A stretch of 64,000 nt of DNA from a virus (taxonomy: Duplodnaviria > Caudoviricetes), in the IMG/VR virus record IMGVR_UViG_3300001525_000092, positions 64,001 through 128,000 of that record; one strand, given 5' to 3'. Under the pieces are notes generated by a model. That model did no database searches, was not told where the DNA came from, and worked only from the letters and a program-made list of their open reading frames with translations. Position numbers and translations under genes: made by a program. Of the stretch, positions 4,953-50,316 are shown in pieces (the stretch's first letter is position 1; every line of letters begins with the position of its first letter).

Positions 4953-7355
4953 ATGAAAGTACGTAAGAGAGATGGTAAAGTCCAGGGCTTTGACTTGAAC
5001 AAGCCAATCAGAGCACTTGAGAAAGTGTACAAGAATGGAGTGAGAGAAGAAGTTCCAGATGGACTGGAGATGAAGTTTACAGAAGCCATCAATGCATGGT
5101 TGTCAACAATGAAAGAAGATGTTGTTGACATTGAGACTATCCAAGACTTCTTGAGAGACTTTCTCATGTCTGAAGGAGAGAGCAAAGCTGCAGAGCAGTT
5201 CATCTTGTACAGAGAAGAGAGGTCTAACTATCGAGAGTCAAACACTAAGCTAGCTAAGAACATTGCAACAAAGCTTTATGCTAAGAATGTTGTCAATCAG
5301 AATGCTAACTTAGATGAGAATAGCTTTAGTGGACGCATTGGTGAAGCAGGAGCAGTTGTATGCAAAGACTTTGCATTGAAGAACAACATGTCTAAGATGG
5401 CAAGAAAGAATCATGAAGACAACATGATTTATCAACACGACCTCGACAAATATGCTAGTGGGATGCATAATTGTCTTACTGATCCGGTTGATGTTCTTCT
5501 AGAGCATGGAATAGCGTTGAAGCAATGTGACATTCGGTCAGCTAATTCATTGAACACTGCATTTCAGTTGCTAGCAGTCAACTTCCAAGTACAGTCACTA
5601 GAACAATTTGGCGGAATATCCGCATCACATCTTGACTGGACTATGGTGCCATATTTCAGAAAGAGCTTCTTCAAGCATTACAACAACTGGTGTGATGGAA
5701 TTCCGATGATGAAGTGGGCTAAGCCTAGCATAGACAAAGACAAGATAAAGCATGCACCAGTGAATGATTGTCAATATGTTGGATATGGATTATTAAAGCC
5801 ATTGAAGAAGATGATATGGAAGAGAGCATGGAACTCAACTATCAAAGAGTTGAATCAATCTGTTGAAGCGACTTTCCATAATCTCAATAGTCTCCAATCT
5901 CGCAGCGGTGCACAATTGCCATTCTCAAGCATCAACTATGGAACTTGCTTCCTTCCGGAAGGCAGAGCAATCATAAGAGCATTGATAGAAGGATCTATGA
6001 AAGGGACAGGTAAGAACCACCATACTGCTATCTTCCCATGTTGCATATTCCAGTACAGCAAAGACATACATGGAGACAAGAATCATCCTGGTCCTAACTA
6101 TGACTTGTTCAGGCTAGCGTGCAAGTGCACTGCAGAAAGGATATATCCAAACTATGCGAATGTTGATTGGTCTACTAACTTGAAAGGAAATGAGTTTGAT
6201 AGAGAACAAAAGAAGAAAGCACTAGACATGCTAGAGACATTCAGCTCACATGATTATGCTGCATTTGCTAATTGGTTGTATGAGCATCCTGACTATGAAG
6301 ACTATCTTTCATTAGATGGAATTTACGACAATAAGACAGATTGCTGGACAATCTATGTGAGACCTGCAAGTCAGTTCACAAGATACGAAGTCATGTCAAC
6401 TATGGGTTGTCGTACTTATAATGGTTATGACATCAATGCAGATGCTGAGTATTTCTTTGACATGTTCAAGAAGATAGCAGAGACTGGAAAAGTTCAAGAC
6501 AACTGGCTTCTCTCTGCTAATCAGAAAGATGGTAGAGGAAACATCTGTCCGGTGACTATCATCATGCCTACACTTGCTATGATGGCAAAGGAGTCTGGTA
6601 GCAAAGATGCAGTAGAGACATTCATGAAACTGCTTGACAAGAAGATACATGAGGCAAGAGAGATGCTTCTAGAGAGATTCACATTGATATGCAGTCAGAA
6701 TCCAAAGTCTGCACCATTCATGTGGACAAACAACACTATGGTTGGTTACATTCTTGGAGAAGGTCCAGTATCAGCAATGAAGCATGGAACTTTAGCTATT
6801 GGTCAGATTGGTCTAGCGGAGACATTGCAGATATTGATTGGGTGTGACCATACAGAACAGAGAGGTCTAGAGTTAGCAAAGAGAATTGAGAAGCTTTACA
6901 ATGATAGATGTGCGGAGTTCAAGAAGAACGACAAGCTCAACTTTGGTGTCTATTATACTCCAGCCGAAGGTCTTTGTCATACTTCAATGAAGAAGTTCAA
7001 AGCAAAGTATGGTACTATTCCTCATGTGTCTGATCATGAATTCTTCACTAACTCTATGCATGTCCCTGTATATGACAATGTAGATTGCTTCAAGAAGATT
7101 GACATTGAGAGTCAATTGACTGGATATAGCAATGCTGGTTGCATCACTTATGTAGAGCTTCCTGCTAATGCTATCAACAACATTGATGCTATAGAAGAGT
7201 TAGTTGTCCACATGATGCAAAAGAACATCCCGTATGCAGCAATCAACTTCAAGCTGAATAGCTGCAATTCTTGTGGATATCATGGAATTGATGTGTTTGA
7301 TGAGTGTCCTAGATGTGGAAGTCATGACATCGAGCATCTGGCGAGAGTAACTGGT
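4953..7355 (+). CDS. nrdD: Anaerobic ribonucleotide reductase NrdD, exon 1
   Basis: ATP-cone (VRKRDG), QNAN, MGCRT active-site loop, YYTPAEGL, Zn-site CxxC..CPxC; ends at RVTG before the intron. Confidence 0.95.
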
Positions 7356-42953: not shown

Positions 42954-43026
42954 GGATTGATAGCTTAGATGGTCTGAGCGCTGGACTGAAAATCCAGAGG
43001 TCGTGGATCGTTACCACGTCAATCCA
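42954..43026 (+). tRNA. tRNA-Phe(GAA)
   Basis: Cloverleaf, CTGGA-CT GAA AA-TCCAG; atypical T-loop. Confidence 0.9.
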
Positions 43027-43065
43027 CTAAGAAAATTGTTCTTTGAAATAATGAATACAATGAAT

Positions 43066-43139
43066 GTTCTGTTAACTCAGTTGGATAGAGTACGATACTT
43101 TTAATATCGGAGTCATGAGTTCAAGTCTCATACAGAACA
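43066..43139 (+). tRNA. tRNA-Lys(TTT)
   Basis: CGATA-CT TTT AA-TATCG. Confidence 0.92.
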
Positions 43140-43454
43140 CAACAAGATTGTCAAGAGATCTCTTCCGAAAATGCAAAGGAATGAGAATCTCAGCATCATT
43201 GAAATGTCTTATCAGATATATCGGACAATGATTAATCTGGTTGCTAGAAAGAACTTGGACAGTTCAAATATAGTTGTTAACTCAAATGCTCACGAGCTCT
43301 AGCTGGATATAATCAATGATGAATGATGACATTGAGAAGACATGCATGAAGTCCGATGCATAGACATGGTCAATATGATGTTTGATCTTCTTCTCATAGG
43401 TCATTGTTCTTGGATTGAAAGCGAACAAGAACTAAAACAACAAATCGCTTGCAT

Positions 43455-43539
43455 GGAAGTTTGGCAGAGTGGACTATTGCACTGGTCTTGAAAACCAGAG
43501 GTCAGAGATGATCCATAGGTTCGAATCCTATAGCTTCCG
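43455..43539 (+). tRNA. tRNA-Ser(TGA)
   Basis: Long variable arm, CT TGA AA. Confidence 0.92.
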
Positions 43540-43545
43540 CTACTT

Positions 43546-43617
43546 GGGTGATTGTCAGAGTGGTTTATGTCTGGGTCTGCAAAACCCAGTAGGTTGGTCC
43601 GATTCCAACATCACCCT
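43546..43617 (+). tRNA. tRNA-Cys(GCA)
   Basis: CT GCA AA, U73. Confidence 0.88.
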
Positions 43618-43623
43618 CAGAAT

Positions 43624-43856
43624 AGATTGCAATAGACAAAGTTGTTGCCTTAGATGGCTTGTCAAGAGACTGATAAGTTCTGGTTGAAGTGATACGAGAT
43701 GTCATACTAAAACTCCAAAATCCGGAAAGTTAAGTCCAGTCCTCAGTTGCATATTAAAAGAATCAATGCTGCAGTAAATTGATTCTATATAAAGTTGCAA
43801 GTTGTCTATGAATGCAGATGGTAAAGGTTCATAGAAACTCTCGTCTACTGCAATCT
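43624..43856 (+). ncRNA. Candidate structured ncRNA of unknown class
   Basis: 13/14-bp closing stem AGATTGCAATAGAC / GTCTACTGCAATCT with internal hairpins; lies between tRNAs. Confidence 0.55.
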
Positions 43857-43892
43857 TACAATGGTTACTTATATTGATGGTGACCATGCAAT

Positions 43893-43966
43893 GGTTACTT
43901 AGCTCAGTTGGTTAGAGCGCAACATTCATAAAGTTGAGGTCCAAGGTTCGAATCCTTGAGTGACTA
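43893..43966 (+). tRNA. tRNA with CAT anticodon (Met or Ile2)
   Basis: TT CAT AA loop; one mismatch in the anticodon stem. Confidence 0.85.
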
Positions 43967-43976
43967 CAAGTTAATT

Positions 43977-44054
43977 GCATCGGTGGTGTAACTGGAGGTG
44001 CACATCTGACTTCCAATCAGAAGGCTTACGCGAGTTCGAATCTCGTCCGATGCT
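43977..44054 (+). tRNA. tRNA-Gly(TCC)
   Basis: TCTGA-CT TCC AA-TCAGA. Confidence 0.9.
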
Positions 44055-44062
44055 CATTTTTC

Positions 44063-44136
44063 GGGGTTATAACTCAGTTGCATAGAGTAAGAAACTTCTA
44101 ATTTCTAAGTCGTAGGTTGGAATCCTACTAACCCCG
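44063..44136 (+). tRNA. tRNA-Arg(TCT)
   Basis: AGAAA-CT TCT AA-TTTCT. Confidence 0.88.
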
Positions 44137-44179
44137 CTAGTGCACTTGGTTTATTTTTAATTAAATAAATTAGGTTTGA

Positions 44180-45109
44180 ATGTATTATAGATGTAAATTT
44201 TGTAATAAAGAATTTGATAATAAAAGATCAAAAGGACAACATGAATCATTTTGTGATTTAAACCCAAACAAAAGATATTCATGGAATAAAGGAAAAAGTG
44301 CAAAGACTGATGATAGAATATTAAAATCAAAAGAAACATTTATAAGAAGGTATAAAAATGGAGAAATAAAATTTAATCCACACATATGGACACAAGAAGA
44401 AAAAAATAATCTTTCTAAAAAACGAAAAGAATGGCTAATGAAAAATCCTGATAAGCATCCTTGGAGAAATATGAAGCATAATCGTAGTGAGCCTTGTGAA
44501 GTTTTAAAAGATTTTCTTAGAAAAAATAGCATTCAATTTATAGAAGAATATAATCCAAAAATACAAGATCATAATTATTCTTTAGATATTGCATTTCCTG
44601 ATATAAAATTTGCAATAGAGGTAAATGGTAATCAACATTATAATAATGATGGATCATTAAATGAAAGTTCATTATATAGACATAAATTATTAGAAGCTAA
44701 TGGATGGAAAATATTAGAATTGCATTATACAAAATGTTATAATTTTGACATATCAATATTGGATAAATACGATAACATAGAAGATTTTTATGATAAAGAT
44801 TACGTAGGAAAATATTTTTCAAGAAAAGAAGAAAGAAAAAGAAAAATAGAAGAAGAAAGAAAACAAATAATAGAAAATAAAAAAAGAAGAAAATTTCAGA
44901 AAGAAGAAGAATTCATTGAAAGAAAAAAAATATTATTAGATTTGTTAAATAATTCAAATATTGACTTTAATAAATTCGGATGGGTAAATAAGGCACATCA
45001 ATATCTATCTAACAAAAATGTTTGGTTTCATTCAAATATGAATAGACAAATAAAAAAATATATACCTGAATATATTAATTCTTTTTTCTGGAGACACATA
45101 AGGACATAA
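44180..45109 (+). CDS. Putative homing endonuclease, Vsr/DUF559-like PD-(D/E)xK with Zn finger
   Basis: CKFC..H...C, WNKG, LDIAFP..AIEVNG.QH, GW.IL; very AT-rich. Confidence 0.75.
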   Translation: MYYRCKFCNKEFDNKRSKGQHESFCDLNPNKRYSWNKGKSAKTDDRILKSKETFIRRYKNGEIKFNPHIWTQEEKNNLSKKRKEWLMKNPDKHPWRNMKHNRSEPCEVLKDFLRKNSIQFIEEYNPKIQDHNYSLDIAFPDIKFAIEVNGNQHYNNDGSLNESSLYRHKLLEANGWKILELHYTKCYNFDISILDKYDNIEDFYDKDYVGKYFSRKEERKRKIEEERKQIIENKKRRKFQKEEEFIERKKILLDLLNNSNIDFNKFGWVNKAHQYLSNKNVWFHSNMNRQIKKYIPEYINSFFWRHIRT

Positions 45110-45174
45110 TAAAGGAGAGAACTAGCTTATCGAGGAAAAACCCATGAGCAAAGTCAACCTCCTTGTAGTTGAAT

Positions 45175-45248
45175 AGAGTAGTATATCAATAGGCTAGATT
45201 TCTGCATTTGGGATGCAGAGGTTGTCGGTTCGAGTCCGGTCTACTCTA
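45175..45248 (+). tRNA. tRNA-Pro(TGG)
   Basis: CTGCA-TT TGG GA-TGCAG. Confidence 0.85.
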
Positions 45249-45257
45249 CAAATAATT

Positions 45258-45329
45258 GCTCCTGTCGATTAATGGTTAGGTTCTCAGTCTCCAAAACTGA
45301 TGGTGGTGGTTCGATTCCATCCGGGAGTG
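45258..45329 (+). tRNA. tRNA-Trp(CCA)
   Basis: TCAGT-CT CCA AA-ACTGA. Confidence 0.9.
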
Positions 45330-45464
45330 CTATGTCAAATATTTAAGCATTGAGATATATATATCATTGAAGATGGCAAGAGAGTTCATTCTTACACTAC
45401 AGAAGATGGTATCAAGAAGACTTACATACTGCCTAACTTCAGAAAGCCAAAGACATGGAAAGAG

Positions 45465-45692
45465 ATGAAGAAAGAAGATCCGTGGGCTAAGTATTTGAAG
45501 AATAGCTCAACTTCTCATTCTTGGGTATCAGACCAGTTAGATGACAAGCATGCTATCAAGTTGCAACGTGTCACCAACAAGAAAGTCATCAATGAAGGAA
45601 TCCAAGAATACATTGATGCTTTTGATGAGAGCTTTGAATGTTGGTTTGATGAGACTTTGAATGAATGGAGATCTCTTTATGAGGTAGCATAA
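45465..45692 (+). CDS. Hypothetical protein (frame open further upstream)
   Basis: Genome-typical codons; start unclear. Confidence 0.45.
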   Translation: MKKEDPWAKYLKNSSTSHSWVSDQLDDKHAIKLQRVTNKKVINEGIQEYIDAFDESFECWFDETLNEWRSLYEVA

Positions 45693-45701
45693 GATATACA
45701 T

Positions 45702-45773
45702 GGTGGATATCGTTCAATGGTAGGACAGAAGATTGTGGTTCTTCTAATGAGAGTTCGATTCTCTCTATTCACC
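45702..45773 (+). tRNA. tRNA-His(GTG)
   Basis: G-1:C73, TT GTG GT. Confidence 0.92.
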
Positions 45774-45787
45774 CAATAAAATAAATT

Positions 45788-45872
45788 GGAGAGTTGCCAG
45801 AATGGTTAATGGAGCAGTTTGCTAAACTGTAGTCGAGAAATCGGCTTCTAGGTTCGAGTCCTAGATTCTCCG
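45788..45872 (+). tRNA. tRNA-Ser(GCT)
   Basis: Long variable arm, TT GCT AA. Confidence 0.92.
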
Positions 45873-45887
45873 CTTGAATTTTTATTA

Positions 45888-45970
45888 CGGACTGTGGTGT
45901 AATGGCAGCCACGCCAGACTTAGGATCTGGTGTCAGAGATGACGTGTGGGTTCGAATCCCACCAGTCCGA
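45888..45970 (+). tRNA. tRNA-Leu(TAG)
   Basis: CCAGA-CT TAG GA-TCTGG, long variable arm. Confidence 0.92.
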
Positions 45971-46140
45971 CGAAGCACAATCATGTAAATCAACAGGTTA
46001 GACCTATAGATACATGAAAGTAAACATGAAGGAAGCTGACTGAACAACTTCATCGGTTGAATTAAAATGTATTAATAATAGGACGAGGTAAGACTGCAAA
46101 CCTTAATTGATATTGCGCGCCATGCATTGTTGCTTCCCAT

Positions 46141-46226
46141 GCCTCGATGGCGGAATTGGTAGACGCATTGGACTTAAAATCCAATGTCCAGAAATGGACG
46201 TGCAGGTTCGATCCCTGTTCGAGGTA
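46141..46226 (+). tRNA. tRNA-Leu(TAA)
   Basis: TTGGA-CT TAA AA-TCCAA. Confidence 0.93.
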
Positions 46227-46272
46227 CTTTTTAACATAGATTTTATTTTTAACTATCTTAAACTTAAAAAAA

Positions 46273-46944
46273 ATGAAATCATTATCACAATACATAACTG
46301 AATCTATTGACAAGTCAAAGATTGTCACTAGTTGCAAAGCATACAATGATCTTTCTAAGATGCTCAAGTCATTAGGAATGGTATCAAGTGAAGAAGGATC
46401 AGAAAATACTTCTTATGAAGACATCATCTCAGCAATAAAGAAGACTATTGGTGAAGGTCCTTATTATGTGGTATCAGACAGAAATCCAAAGTCTGCATTC
46501 AGTGAGATTGCAAGCAAAGCAGACATCAAGTCAGGTACTGGAACAGACAATGGATTCATTGACTTAGTTTCTATCAACAAAGAATACAATGATAGTGATG
46601 AAAAGAAGAATGATCCTACCTTTGCGTTCAATGCATGGAAACTTAAGATTAAGAATGCAATGTACCAGAACAAAGTCTTGAAGAATGGCAAAGGTCTCAC
46701 ACAAGAGTTAGATGCTAAAGTGAAGCAGATGAAGATGTTGTTTGACTTAGATCCTATAAAGCTAAGTGCAGTTGCAAGGCACGGAAGAACATCGATAAAG
46801 TCTACTTACTTCAAAGTAAGACCTGCTATATTCATTGTCAATGATACTGTAGTTCCCGGAATAGAGTTTGTAAGTGATACATACACAAGCACTAGAGACG
46901 AGAACATCTATGTGTTCTCAGATGAGAAGTTGAAAGACATCTAA
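46273..46944 (+). CDS. Putative internal head protein, paralog A
   Basis: MKSLSQYITES leader; full-length similarity to the next ORF. Confidence 0.6.
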   Translation: MKSLSQYITESIDKSKIVTSCKAYNDLSKMLKSLGMVSSEEGSENTSYEDIISAIKKTIGEGPYYVVSDRNPKSAFSEIASKADIKSGTGTDNGFIDLVSINKEYNDSDEKKNDPTFAFNAWKLKIKNAMYQNKVLKNGKGLTQELDAKVKQMKMLFDLDPIKLSAVARHGRTSIKSTYFKVRPAIFIVNDTVVPGIEFVSDTYTSTRDENIYVFSDEKLKDI

Positions 46945-46978
46945 AATATTATTAATCAATTAATATATTATTCAATAA

Positions 46979-47641
46979 ATGAAGTCATTGACACAATACA
47001 TAGCAGAGTCGTTAGATTCTAGTATCATCAGAGACAAAGCATTCAAGTTCACTGCATTGTCAAAAGTACTTGACAGAATGAGTGTTCCGACTACTAGATC
47101 AGTGAGAGCACAAGCTCAAGAATCCATCAAGAAGTTCTTAGGAAAAGGTCCATACTATGTAGTTAGATCTGACATGAAGTTCACCAAAGATGTCTTCAAA
47201 GAAATTGTTGACAAAGCTGCGGTTGGATCTCATGGCATAGTTGATGTGATTGACATCAATAAGCTTTACAAAGATCAGATGGACGAATATGGAAATGCTA
47301 GTCCTGAAGTGAGAAAGATGAGAATCAAGAAAGCACTAGAAGTCAACAAGACACTCAAAGAGAAAGGACTTACTAATGACTTAGATACTCTCCTTAAGAG
47401 AATGGAAGACTTAGTGAAAGAAGATCCTATCAAGCTAGATCATTCATATACTTTAGGCAACTCTAAAGGAGACTTAGAGAGAAATGTCAACTTCTTCCCT
47501 GGAGCATGCATCATTGATGACAAGCTTGTTCCGGTGCTCCAAGCATACAATGAGTCAATGTATGCTAAAGACAAGACATTTGTGCTAGTGTTCAGTGAAA
47601 GCACACTGAAGAATGGCATCAATGACACTACAGACAAATAA
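46979..47641 (+). CDS. Putative internal head protein, paralog B
   Basis: MKSLTQYIAES leader; shared GPYYVV, KGLT, DPIKL, VFS. Confidence 0.6.
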   Translation: MKSLTQYIAESLDSSIIRDKAFKFTALSKVLDRMSVPTTRSVRAQAQESIKKFLGKGPYYVVRSDMKFTKDVFKEIVDKAAVGSHGIVDVIDINKLYKDQMDEYGNASPEVRKMRIKKALEVNKTLKEKGLTNDLDTLLKRMEDLVKEDPIKLDHSYTLGNSKGDLERNVNFFPGACIIDDKLVPVLQAYNESMYAKDKTFVLVFSESTLKNGINDTTDK

Positions 47642-47928
47642 AAGACAAAGTATTTAATACTTTTTAATAGAAATAGTTGTCTATCTAGACTATATTGATA
47701 TTATAATTAAATGAATAAGTAAATAACAATGAGAACAAATCAACATACATATTATCAAGATACTATTATAGAACAGGCCATTAATTATGATAGCTTGCTC
47801 AAGTCTTGTTGTATATGTGATGAGATTGAATTTATCAATTAGCCTCCACTGTTTTAAAACGACAACATAAACCTCAAGACAAGAGCAATGCAATTCATTT
47901 GTGTTGCTCTTTGTTGATTCAACATAAT

Positions 47929-48002
47929 AGGTGATTATATCAGTTGGTTAGATAGCTTGCCTGATAAGCAAGAGGTCGCAAGTTCAAGTCTTGCATCACC
48001 TA
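47929..48002 (+). tRNA. tRNA-Ile(GAT)
   Basis: CTTGC-CT GAT AA-GCAAG. Confidence 0.92.
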
Positions 48003-48097
48003 CAAAAAAAATGAAAAAGTTCTTTGAAATGATGAAATAATTCCTAGATATTCTATATTAATAATGTACGTAACAAAACAATAAAAATTTAATTATT

Positions 48098-48301
48098 ATG
48101 AATATGAATAGATTAAAGAACAACATTAAGATACTTGATATATTGAGACAACTTGCTCATGAGTTTCCTAATATGAGATTTCATCAGTTGCTTATGGCAG
48201 TGAATGCTACTATTGATGAAGATCAGTTCTATGAAGAATCAAGTGTTACTTTAAATAGAATTAGAAAATTCCTTAAGAATAAGCAAGAGATGTTCAATTA
48301 A
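48098..48301 (+). CDS. Hypothetical protein
   Basis: FP.MRF.QLL..D.FYEES; class A promoter at 48032-48059. Confidence 0.65.
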   Translation: MNMNRLKNNIKILDILRQLAHEFPNMRFHQLLMAVNATIDEDQFYEESSVTLNRIRKFLKNKQEMFN

Positions 48302-48316
48302 TGTAAGTATATAAAC

Positions 48317-48390
48317 GGTGCGTTTGACAAGTGGTTAAGTCGCCAGCTTTTCACGCTGGTATTTCATCAGTTCGAATCTGATACGCACTA
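48317..48390 (+). tRNA. tRNA-Glu(TTC)
   Basis: CCAGC-TT TTC AC-GCTGG. Confidence 0.92.
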
Positions 48391-48399
48391 CTTTATATT

Positions 48400-48439
48400 G
48401 GGTAGATAGGTAAGTGGTTAAAACGGCTTGACTGTAAAT
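48400..48439 (+). pseudogene. tRNA-Tyr(GTA) 5' half only
   Basis: GGGTAGA TA GGT AAGTGGTTAA AACG G CTTGA CT GTA AA T, then no 3' anticodon stem or T-arm. Confidence 0.75.
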
Positions 48440-48669
48440 AATTTAATTGTTGTATGTTCAAATCATCATAGAATGATACATGTAAATAATGTTATTCAAT
48501 AGATTATTTACAAAATTTATCTATTGAGAACACATTTAACAATTGGAAAGACTATTATCATTTAGAACGATAGAATGGGTCAAAGGAACAAATGATAATC
48601 ATGACGAAACAGATGCAAGAAATTGCATAGGAGATTGATGTGTGGCTAGTCAACCTTAAGACTTATCTA

Positions 48670-48743
48670 GGTGCATTAGTTCAGTTGGTTAGAGCGCTAC
48701 CCTGTCACGGTAGAAGTCATCGGTTCGAATCCGATATGTACCG
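48670..48743 (+). tRNA. tRNA-Asp(GTC)
   Basis: CTACC-CT GTC AC-GGTAG. Confidence 0.93.
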
Positions 48744-48753
48744 CAAAAGAAAT

Positions 48754-48824
48754 TGGACTATAGTATAATGGCAGTACAGAAGATTTTGGTTCTTCTAGTC
48801 GGAGTTCGAATCTCCGTGGTCCAA
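48754..48824 (+). tRNA. tRNA-Gln(TTG)
   Basis: GAAGA-TT TTG GT-TCTTC. Confidence 0.9.
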
Positions 48825-48831
48825 CAAACAT

Positions 48832-48904
48832 TGAGATATGGTGTAATGTGGTAACATCCAAGTCTCTGGAACTTGTGTTCTTCGTTCGAATCCAGATATC
48901 TCAA
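48832..48904 (+). tRNA. tRNA-Gln(CTG), weak T-stem
   Basis: CAAGT-CT CTG GA-ACTTG. Confidence 0.8.
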
Positions 48905-48981
48905 CAAAAAAATGAAAAGTTCTTTGAAATTTTTAATATAACTTTCTATATTATAAAAGTAAATACATAAAAATGTATATC

Positions 48982-49055
48982 GGGCTTGTAGCTCAGTCGG
49001 TTAGAGCAGCACACTCATAATGTGACGGTCTCGGGTTCAAATCCTGACTGGCCCA
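48982..49055 (+). tRNA. tRNA with CAT anticodon (Ile2 or Met)
   Basis: CT CAT AA; class A-like promoter at 48924-48952. Confidence 0.88.
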
Positions 49056-49070
49056 CTTTAATTTTTAATT

Positions 49071-49901
49071 ATGCCTAATCAATATACAAAATCATCAAAT
49101 GGATTATTAGAATATAAAAAATACCATTATTTCTATAAAATAACTAATCGTTTAAATGGTAAATATTATTATGGAATACATTCAACTGATAATTTAAATG
49201 ATAGATATAAAGGTTCTGGTATAAGATTACATGAAGCATATAAAAAATATGGCATTAATAATTTTAAGAAAGAAATATTAAAATTTTTTAAAACTAGAAA
49301 AGAGGCTTCAAAATATGAAAATAAAATAGTTACAGAAGATGAAGTTAATTCTGATAAATGTTATAATTTAACTGTAGGAGGTGATAAAGGTATATCCAAT
49401 GCTTTTAAAGGAAAACATCATACAGAAAAGACAAAACAAATTGTATCTAAAAAATTAACAATACCTGATGATAAGTTGATTCTTAAAAGGAGAATGATGC
49501 ATAAAGATGGTATTAAAAAATCTGTTAAAATAGAAGATATTCAAACATATAAAGAAAATGGATGGATTTTAGGAGGATCAAATTCTTCTTATATTCATAC
49601 TAAGGAAGAATATTTAGATATATTAAAAGAAAGAAAAAGAAAACGAATTGAAAAGGAAAATATATTAAAAGGAAATAGAATAAAAGAAAAGAAAAGAATT
49701 CATTCAATATTATTAAATATTGCAAAAGATGATAACATAAAATTAAATAAATTTGGATGGAATAAAATTATTATTAAATTATTAAAAGAACAAAATATTA
49801 TTATTAATTCTAATATAAGAAGATTTATAACAAATAATTGTCCTGAATTCTTTAATTATAAAGAAGTTTATAATAAAACATATATCGCGGATGTGGTGTA
49901 A
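49071..49901 (+). CDS. GIY-YIG homing endonuclease (Seg-like) in tRNA array
   Basis: YFYKITN..NGKYYYGIH..Y.GSG, CYNL..GG, NUMOD3-like GKHHTEKTK. Confidence 0.88.
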   Translation: MPNQYTKSSNGLLEYKKYHYFYKITNRLNGKYYYGIHSTDNLNDRYKGSGIRLHEAYKKYGINNFKKEILKFFKTRKEASKYENKIVTEDEVNSDKCYNLTVGGDKGISNAFKGKHHTEKTKQIVSKKLTIPDDKLILKRRMMHKDGIKKSVKIEDIQTYKENGWILGGSNSSYIHTKEEYLDILKERKRKRIEKENILKGNRIKEKKRIHSILLNIAKDDNIKLNKFGWNKIIIKLLKEQNIIINSNIRRFITNNCPEFFNYKEVYNKTYIADVV

Positions 49902-49956
49902 AGGTAGCATACGAGGCTCATAACCTCGAAGAGCCGTTCGAGTCGGACATCCGCAA
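49886..49956 (+). tRNA. tRNA-Met(CAT), initiator-like
   Basis: 5' C unpaired with A, CGAGG-CT CAT AA-CCTCG. Confidence 0.8.
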
Positions 49957-49966
49957 CAAAATAAAT

Positions 49967-50040
49967 TGGAACTTAGCTCAGTTGGTTAGAGCAATTGACT
50001 GTTAATCAATAGGTCATCGGTTCGAATCCGATAGTTCCAG
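49967..50040 (+). tRNA. tRNA-Asn(GTT)
   Basis: ATTGA-CT GTT AA-TCAAT. Confidence 0.93.
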
Positions 50041-50144
50041 CAAACGGCAACGATTATTTAGAGGCGGCCTAACTTAAGGCTACTCAATTGGATATGGTCA
50101 AGCTAATCACTTGAGATGGTCAAGCATCGCCAAACTCTTGACAT

Positions 50145-50218
50145 GGGCTGATAGTTCAGTTGGTTAGAACATTTGCTTTGCAAGCAAGAGGTCCTGAGTT
50201 CGATTCTCAGTCGGTCCA
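50145..50218 (+). tRNA. tRNA-Ala(TGC)
   Basis: G3:U70, TT TGC AA. Confidence 0.92.
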
Positions 50219-50228
50219 CAACACAATT

Positions 50229-50300
50229 GCTCCGATAGCACAGTGGTAGTGCAGCTCACTTGTAATGAGCAGGTCGTTGGTTCGAATCCGACTCGGAGCT
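50229..50300 (+). tRNA. tRNA-Thr(TGT)
   Basis: GCTCA-CT TGT AA-TGAGC. Confidence 0.93.
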
Positions 50301-50316
50301 CTCCTCTGCTGATTTT

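Follow-up and report, generated by a model that had tools for sequence, protein, structure and literature searches.

The window analysed in this study is a 64,000-nt stretch of a 148-kb phage contig (IMG/VR record IMGVR_UViG_3300001525_000092), which was estimated to be about half complete and has a GC content of 36% (0.365). According to ARAGORN and Rfam, the window carries 23 tRNA genes at 42954-50301, among which tRNA-Tyr is absent, and no tRNA was called by these programs in 48392-48669, the interval between tRNA-Glu and tRNA-Asp. This interval holds the first 40 nt of a tRNA-Tyr(GTA) gene, followed directly by the 3' end of an HNH endonuclease gene and by a shortened form of the spacer that precedes tRNA-Asp in related phages. 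The features of the locus are given in table 1.

Table 1. Features at and around the truncated tRNA-Tyr gene (positions in the window).
Feature	Position	Strand	Evidence
Promoter-like motif (GAAAAAGTTCTTTGAAAT ... TATATT)	48013-48059	+	Repeat at 48913-48952; 2 matches against 0.04 expected
tRNA-Glu(TTC), intact; upstream neighbour as in all relatives	48317-48391	+	ARAGORN, Rfam; Glu-Tyr-Asp order in L037-L042
tRNA-Tyr(GTA), first 40 nt, class II; anticodon at 48434-48436, cut right after U39	48400-48439	+	Homology to intact genes
Pseudogene remnant of a free-standing HNH homing endonuclease; TAG stop at 48571-48573	48440-48573	+	tblastn, DNA alignments
Frameshift site; one base missing between 48487 and 48488, window-specific substitutions at 48482-48483	48481-48490	+	Alignments, inverted-repeat list
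Native Tyr-Asp spacer of the phage family, shortened	48574-48669	+	Alignments with L037-L042 and L020
tRNA-Asp(GTC), intact; downstream neighbour	48670-48744	+	ARAGORN, Rfam, order in relatives

The genes of the window phage include a T4-type portal and terminase, NrdD and a family B polymerase, and the portal had no more than 40% identity to anything in the phage collection. With its T4-like portal and terminase genes and a GC content of 36%, the phage is not a Lak phage; it is a jumbo phage with a single tRNA array. Relatives were recovered in two ways, by a search with the HNH protein, which led to L020, and by an alignment of the terminase, which led to L037-L042. Related loci sought through ORF67 or the terminase alone were not found, and it was alignment A3 of the terminase that succeeded. 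The six contigs L037-L042, whose terminases have about 75% amino acid identity to that of the window, make up the set of relatives. One of them, G001 (L020/L037), is a complete genome of 282,933 bp with terminal repeats. It is syntenic with the window contig at about 73% nucleotide identity, and all 23 of its tRNA genes, with a single Tyr gene among them, lie in one array. The terminase of G001 (L031:15940-18735) is 931 aa long, compared with 718 aa in the window, and has an insertion of about 212 aa directly after the GK of Walker A, the end of which reads ...SHN followed by S, giving it an intein-like look.

In all six relatives the gene order is tRNA-Glu, an intact tRNA-Tyr(GTA), a spacer of about 148 nt, tRNA-Asp and tRNA-Gln. 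The tRNA sets of the window array and of the G001 array (200824-207733) differ: Val(TAC), Gly(GCC), Ile(TAT) and a working Tyr are missing from the window, which has Pro(TGG), Gln(CTG) and three CAT genes. An initial reading of the DNA made without database searches (the sequence-only reading) had called the half tRNA the only Tyr gene in an otherwise near-complete set; Tyr is not the sole gap, because tRNA-Val is absent too and the contig covers only about half of the genome. If the rest of the genome holds no copy of tRNA-Tyr, the window phage has lost a gene that was kept by all six relatives. A gene for a GIY-YIG endonuclease (49071-49901; Pfam, 1.3e-5) also lies inside the window array, and its very low GC content (0.13-0.25) indicates that it is likely to be a second homing endonuclease gene.

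The promoter-like motif in table 1 consists of GAAAA(A)GTTCTTTGAAAT followed by TATATT, and its two copies are located after tRNA-Ile and after tRNA-Gln(CTG). The copy at 48013-48059 is likely to be the transcript start for ORF67, tRNA-Glu, the truncated tRNA-Tyr with the sequences fused to it, tRNA-Asp and two tRNA-Gln genes, all of which would then be co-transcribed. The TTTCTATATTGAATATGTG repeats that flank the tRNA-Tyr gene of a metagenome contig, L009, resemble this motif.

The 40 nt of tRNA-Tyr (GGGTAGATAGGTAAGTGGTTAAAACGGCTTGACTGTAAAT) retain the 5' strand of the acceptor stem, the D-arm, and the 5' strand and the loop of the anticodon stem. The 3' strand of the anticodon stem, the variable arm, the T-arm and the 3' acceptor strand are deleted. 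No tRNA score was given by Rfam to the isolated half, so that its identity as tRNA-Tyr rests on homology; for 48400-48669 there was likewise no match to RF00005 at E<=10 and no default ARAGORN call. Contig L009, which was matched when metagenome contigs were scanned with 31 nt of the half, carries an intact class II tRNA-Tyr of 84 nt at 6366-6449 (ARAGORN; Rfam, 52 bits). The half tRNA is identical to this gene at 40 of 41 positions by blastn (39 of 40 over 48400-48439), and the identity stops exactly after CTGTAAAT. It differs at three of 40 positions from the tRNA-Tyr genes of L039, L041 and L042; among the differences are a compensatory D-stem pair (11-25) and a change at position 28, for which those genes have the matching base in the 3' strand. 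Both the homology and the orthologous position between tRNA-Glu and tRNA-Asp indicate descent from tRNA-Tyr. The matches to L009 and to L038-L042 thus bore out the proposal of the sequence-only reading that a genuine tRNA-Tyr(GTA) 5' part ends at U39.

The same reading had seen neither a T-arm nor a TCTACCC 3' strand, and none was found downstream or elsewhere in the 148-kb contig. TCTACCC, the predicted 3' end, is the 3' end of the L042 tRNA-Tyr. When a 3' half of the type CAAG..GTTCRA..TCTACCC was sought in the contig, as had been proposed, three TCTACCC sites were obtained, all of them without a T-arm, and ARAGORN with introns allowed did not find Tyr in the whole contig. The pattern of the 5' half had no match in GTDB genomes, and hence no host donor of the tRNA was identified. 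Exact patterns of the junction and of the 5' half had no match in IMG/VR.

The sequence that follows U39 is derived from a protein-coding gene. A blastn search of the phage collection with 48200-48900 matched Lak megaphages over 48439-48825. Lak-B1 and Lak-A1 both have an intact tRNA-Tyr, and only a few bases beyond it begins a reading frame of 138 codons, which was identified as an HNH endonuclease (PF01844, E = 5.8e-9). The remnant in the window corresponds to codons 93-138 of this 138-aa form and to approximately the last 46 codons of the 208-aa form of G001, and the nucleotide identity of 48440-48570 to the HNH 3' ends of Lak-B1, Lak-A1 and G001 is 82-88%. Its TAG is located at the same position as the TAA stop of the homologues. 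An alternative code with TAG read as Q, in which a frame from the remnant would stay open into tRNA-Asp, was rejected because TAG aligns with this TAA, and also because recoding of TAG lengthened ORFs no more than recoding of other stop codons.

Two frames were needed to align the remnant by tblastn (residues 93-110, then 112-138; E = 5e-19), indicating a frameshift. Four residues that are invariant in five homologues are replaced (P to S, T to V, K to E and P to L), and the 10 lineage-specific substitutions of the remnant are distributed over the three codon positions as 5/2/3. Only the part from NLIVVCSNHHRMIH onward is kept; both the zinc ribbon of the N-terminus and the CDIHHII strand of the HNH motif are gone. 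While the intact homologues match Pfam, the remnant has neither a complete beta-beta-alpha-metal motif nor an open frame; it is a member of the HNH family by descent, and not a working gene. Because parts of the motif are missing, the frame is shifted and invariant residues are replaced, 48440-48573 is a dead gene fragment rather than an RNA element.

The GC content of the remnant is 0.215, compared with 0.365 for the genome. In the 20 kb around the locus, DNA matches to Lak-A1 and Lak-B1 were confined to tRNA genes and the HNH remnant, and the remnant was the best match. The remnant thus combines a base composition foreign to the genome with high identity to genomes that are otherwise unrelated, as expected of a mobile element, and this AT-richness with an isolated Lak match is typical of what a mobile endonuclease gene would look like. 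Among the six relatives, the HNH gene is present in G001, where it is intact (208 aa; L020:1275-1899) and lies between tRNA-Tyr and the spacer, and is absent from the other five. Such sporadic presence at a fixed site is characteristic of free-standing homing endonuclease genes. The tRNA-Tyr of G001 (L020:1184-1265) is of a sequence type (TGGACAGTGG...) that is different from the type of the five sister contigs L038-L042 (GGGTAGATAG...). This distinct type suggests that the endonuclease gene may travel with flanking tRNA DNA, i.e. by co-conversion during homing.

The remainder of the interval is the spacer of the phage family. A search of the phage collection with the 110 nt at 48560-48669 had given no match, a result later explained by this origin. 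Both ends of the spacer are kept in the window (48574-48606 and 48626-48669), including the conserved first 33 nt or so and the conserved block CATAGGAGATTGATGTG, and about 50 nt of the middle are missing in comparison with the spacer of about 148 nt in the relatives. The latter is almost invariant in L037-L042, and contains a -10-like TAGATATAAT and a hairpin (CAACGCTTTACGTTG). Where there is no endonuclease gene, the ...CCCAC end of tRNA-Tyr is followed directly by TGGGTCAAAAG, which begins with the spacer motif TGGGTCAAA. The corresponding boundary reads HNH-TAA-AA-TGGGTCAAAAG in G001, and remnant-TAG-AA-TGGGTCAAAGG in the window. The right-hand boundary of the insertion (stop codon, AA, TGGGTCAAA) is identical in the two phages, indicating the same insertion site.

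From these data, 48400-48669 is very probably a deletion scar in which the 5' half of tRNA-Tyr became fused to an HNH remnant and the spacer, as a result of ordinary gene decay. The homology, the breakpoints, the frameshift and the state of the relatives are established. The sequence-only reading had listed several explanations for the half tRNA, and that of a mobile-element scar holds; a split or trans-spliced tRNA, an intron and a tRNA-derived ncRNA or decoy are not supported. The sequence after U39 is the frameshifted 3' end of the HNH gene. The sequence-only reading had itself named a simple deletion, seen by comparison with relatives, as a result that would speak against it, and this is essentially what was found in the orthologous arrays, tRNA-Tyr being intact in all six.

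[quoted passage not shown] A single illegitimate recombination would then have joined position 39/40 of tRNA-Tyr to approximately codon 93 of the short HNH form; the microhomology at the junction is at most 1 nt. This event would have removed 44 nt of the tRNA, a short intergenic stretch and, depending on the form, 276-486 nt of the HNH gene (about two thirds of it), i.e. a total of about 320-540 bp. We infer that the break arose by one of two routes. It may have been a later deletion, after the endonuclease gene was in place, or an abortive homing at the arrival of the gene, in which the broken recipient was end-joined into the HNH gene of the donor; from the sequence alone, it could be either. 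The 1-nt frameshift, the four replacements of invariant residues and the shortening of the spacer would belong to a later decay. The scar is probably still transcribed within the tRNA precursor, and processing of the flanking tRNAs would set it free as an unstable spacer RNA. It would give neither a tRNA nor a protein and would lack a function, in a contig that has no other tRNA-Tyr gene.

A split, permuted or intron-containing tRNA-Tyr, with a 3' half joined in cis or in trans and the approximately 230 nt serving as an intron or a pairing leader, would be in keeping with the undamaged 5' half up to U39, and 4 bp of the anticodon stem could be rebuilt with a CAAG at 48616-19. Moreover, enigmatic tRNA introns have been reported in Lak megaphages, one of them in a Tyr(GTA) gene (PMC6784885), and a weak Tyr call was made by ARAGORN at an 80% threshold with introns allowed. 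However, the Lak introns interrupt another gene, at its position 37/38, and have no sequence relation to the DNA inserted here, which is HNH coding DNA and native spacer. The ARAGORN call was rejected, as it begins 9 nt too far upstream and its T-loop falls in HNH coding sequence. A check for group I and group II introns, suggested earlier, was negative: cmscan with Rfam returned only the flanking tRNAs in this region, both at the gathering threshold and at E<=10, without a match to an intron core model, and no 3' exon was found. Within the 148-kb contig, which is about half of the genome, there is no separately encoded 3' half with a T-arm and TCTACCC, and the complete genome of G001 shows no piece of a tRNA beyond the array. 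An interrupted or split gene is therefore extremely improbable.

An assembly artefact or a minority deletion variant, in a population where the dominant phage has an intact tRNA-Tyr and the HNH gene is intact or absent, also appears very unlikely. The truncated form is known from a single metagenome assembly without an independent copy, which counts against the certainty of the deletion scar, and independent contigs sought through exact neighbouring proteins were not on record. On the other hand, both sides of the junction are collinear with the gene order of the relatives, and no repeat longer than 1 nt is present at the junction to mislead an assembler. The independent decay of the remnant and the spacer points to an old lesion.

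The sequence-only reading had described some 230 nt of structured RNA. The inverted repeats that it listed do exist (48445-51/48538-44, 48481-90/48503-12, 48496-504/48519-27, 48554-63/48590-99 and 48614-18/48623-27), but most of them fall in HNH coding DNA or native spacer, and the fold is ordinary for this genome. The minimum free energy was -53.8 kcal/mol (z = -2.16 against shuffled sequences), and 36% of GC-matched 270-nt windows of the same genome folded equally well or better (25% after GC regression). When the 11 lineage-specific changes were reverted, the fold became more stable (-56.0 against -53.8 kcal/mol), and random changes did as well in 29% of trials. A fold at background level and the absence of the truncated form from the relatives are not what would be expected of a stable ncRNA.

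Some properties of the repeats were less common. Four perfect repeats of at least 9 bp in 270 nt were found in 0.4% of all genome windows, in 1.9% of low-GC windows and in 0.3% of simulations with random changes, although this count was chosen after the data had been seen, and P is 0.19 when the stem lengths are summed instead. Short inverted repeats are extended or completed by seven of the 11 window-specific changes (P~0.003 by simulation with random changes). Through two substitutions and the deletion at 48482-48488, a formerly imperfect inverted repeat now matches 48503-48512 perfectly over 10 bp. We infer that this cluster was left by quasipalindrome-templated mutation, and the perfect stems would then have arisen without selection on an RNA. 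This type of mutation is raised during break repair, and perfect repeats can arise by it without selection (PMC7202029; bioRxiv 10.1101/2023.08.09.552703). The lineage-specific sharpening of the AT hairpins could be due to it or to chance. The ends of the stretch can also pair (TAGATAGG/CTTATCTA), with p~0.012 when the stretch is taken from 48400 and 0.09 when it is taken from 48392, the true spacer boundary. Closing stems are not general among the spacers of the array, and besides this locus only 45972-46140 was notable. In this spacer, which lies between two tRNA-Leu genes, the terminal duplex has -15.0 kcal/mol (p = 0.005 against random windows).

These properties bear on the idea that the scar was exapted as RNA. 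In that case 48400-48669 would give rise to a spacer RNA that is processed and folded, in which the old acceptor 5' strand is paired to the last 8 nt before tRNA-Asp and several hairpins form internally, and which is kept for a part in precursor processing or as a decoy against a defence nuclease that attacks tRNA-Tyr. The terminal duplex (-12.6 to -13.1 kcal/mol, p~0.012 against random windows), the four long perfect repeats, their preferential completion by window-specific changes and the z-score of the fold are all in line with such an RNA, yet it is judged to be very improbable. The stems are short, and nearly all of their pairs are A-T, most stems having a single G-C pair. More than a third of GC-matched windows match or beat the folding energy, and the reverted sequence folds better. 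The repeat count is post hoc, the terminal stem is weakened when the true boundary is used and most other array spacers have no closing stem, and templated mutation can yield perfect repeats without selection. The truncated form occurs in no relative, so that there is no conservation or covariation to show, and the anticodon stem and variable arm needed by tRNA-directed nucleases are missing.

An extended version, for which the chances are similarly slim, would have abortive homing break tRNA-Tyr at the cleavage site of the endonuclease itself, the leftover then being reshaped into a hairpin-rich, end-paired RNA that was kept in the precursor. If this were true, the RNA would, for example, help the tRNAs on either side to mature or titrate a host nuclease directed at tRNA-Tyr. 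It is better supported that the junction at 48439/48440 of the deletion scar may mark the cut site of a putative tRNA-Tyr-targeting HNH endonuclease, the gene of which would move between Lak megaphages and an unrelated family of jumbo phages.

The correct annotation of 48400-48669 is a truncated tRNA-Tyr pseudogene fused to an HNH homing endonuclease pseudogene; labels such as ncRNA, intron or split tRNA do not apply. Decay of this sort, brought about by a homing endonuclease gene, is an ordinary event, and the deletion scar adds little beyond this annotation. The notable point is that a tRNA-Tyr-associated HNH gene is common to Lak megaphages and an unrelated jumbo phage family. A single HNH gene family, always located beside tRNA-Tyr, was found in the Lak megaphages and in a phage family with T4-like structural genes, with 82-88% nucleotide identity. 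The sharing of this gene without other DNA similarity suggests exchange between unrelated gut phages.

Phage T4 encodes two stable RNAs, C and D, in its tRNA cluster. The scar resembles these in its position between tRNA genes, in its expected release by tRNA processing and in the terminal stem that can be drawn for it. It differs from them in that it is not conserved in relatives, has no encoded CCA and no tRNA-like 3' overhang, and is a recognisable dead gene.

For the Lak megaphages, Devoto et al. (2019) described enigmatic tRNA introns, including a Tyr(GTA) gene that is interrupted just after the anticodon (PMC6784885). As in the window, a gut huge phage with a tRNA array has a Tyr(GTA) gene broken near the anticodon. 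However, the Lak genes keep both exons, and their non-coding inserts of about 93 nt or more lie at position 37/38, whereas the window gene has no 3' exon, is broken after position 39 and is followed by HNH coding DNA in place of a non-coding insert. A long tRNA-like gene was also observed in Lak-B1 (L001:1744-1990) and Lak-A1 (L002:~1775-2000), with tRNA-Asp or the HNH gene on one side and tRNA-Gln on the other. Its acceptor strands are GGTTATA...TATAACC, its T-arm (AATGGTTCGAATCCATT) is clean and about 170 nt are inserted in the middle of the gene, and it was called neither by ARAGORN, even with introns allowed, nor by Rfam. This is probably an oversized 'pseudo' tRNA with an enigmatic intron of the type described in PMC6784885.

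The decayed reading frame left after invasion is comparable to defunct homing endonuclease genes such as the truncated I-TevIII of T4. A decayed endonuclease frame is the expected end of the homing cycle (PMC2790892; PMC2988022). In the window, the decay also took part of the neighbouring gene, and the element was for this reason not phenotypically neutral.

The segB gene of T4 and T6 is similar in that an endonuclease gene is located directly beside tRNA genes, occurs sporadically among relatives and is inherited with the flanking tRNA DNA. For segB, co-inheritance of the endonuclease gene and the tRNA gene region that flanks it has been described (PMC2330249), and the differing tRNA-Tyr type beside the HNH gene of G001 is what co-conversion of the flank predicts. 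The enzyme of the window and G001 is a putative HNH endonuclease, assigned by sequence, while segB is of the GIY-YIG type, and the outcome in the window was a deletion that destroyed both the tRNA and the endonuclease gene, and not an amplification. At the segB locus, microhomology-mediated rearrangements have occurred between tRNA-Tyr and the endonuclease gene (PMC13096335). The scar is a concrete case of collateral damage by a selfish endonuclease gene to an adjacent tRNA gene in a phage array, and as such fits a role of endonuclease genes as drivers of rearrangement around phage tRNA-Tyr (PMC13096335).
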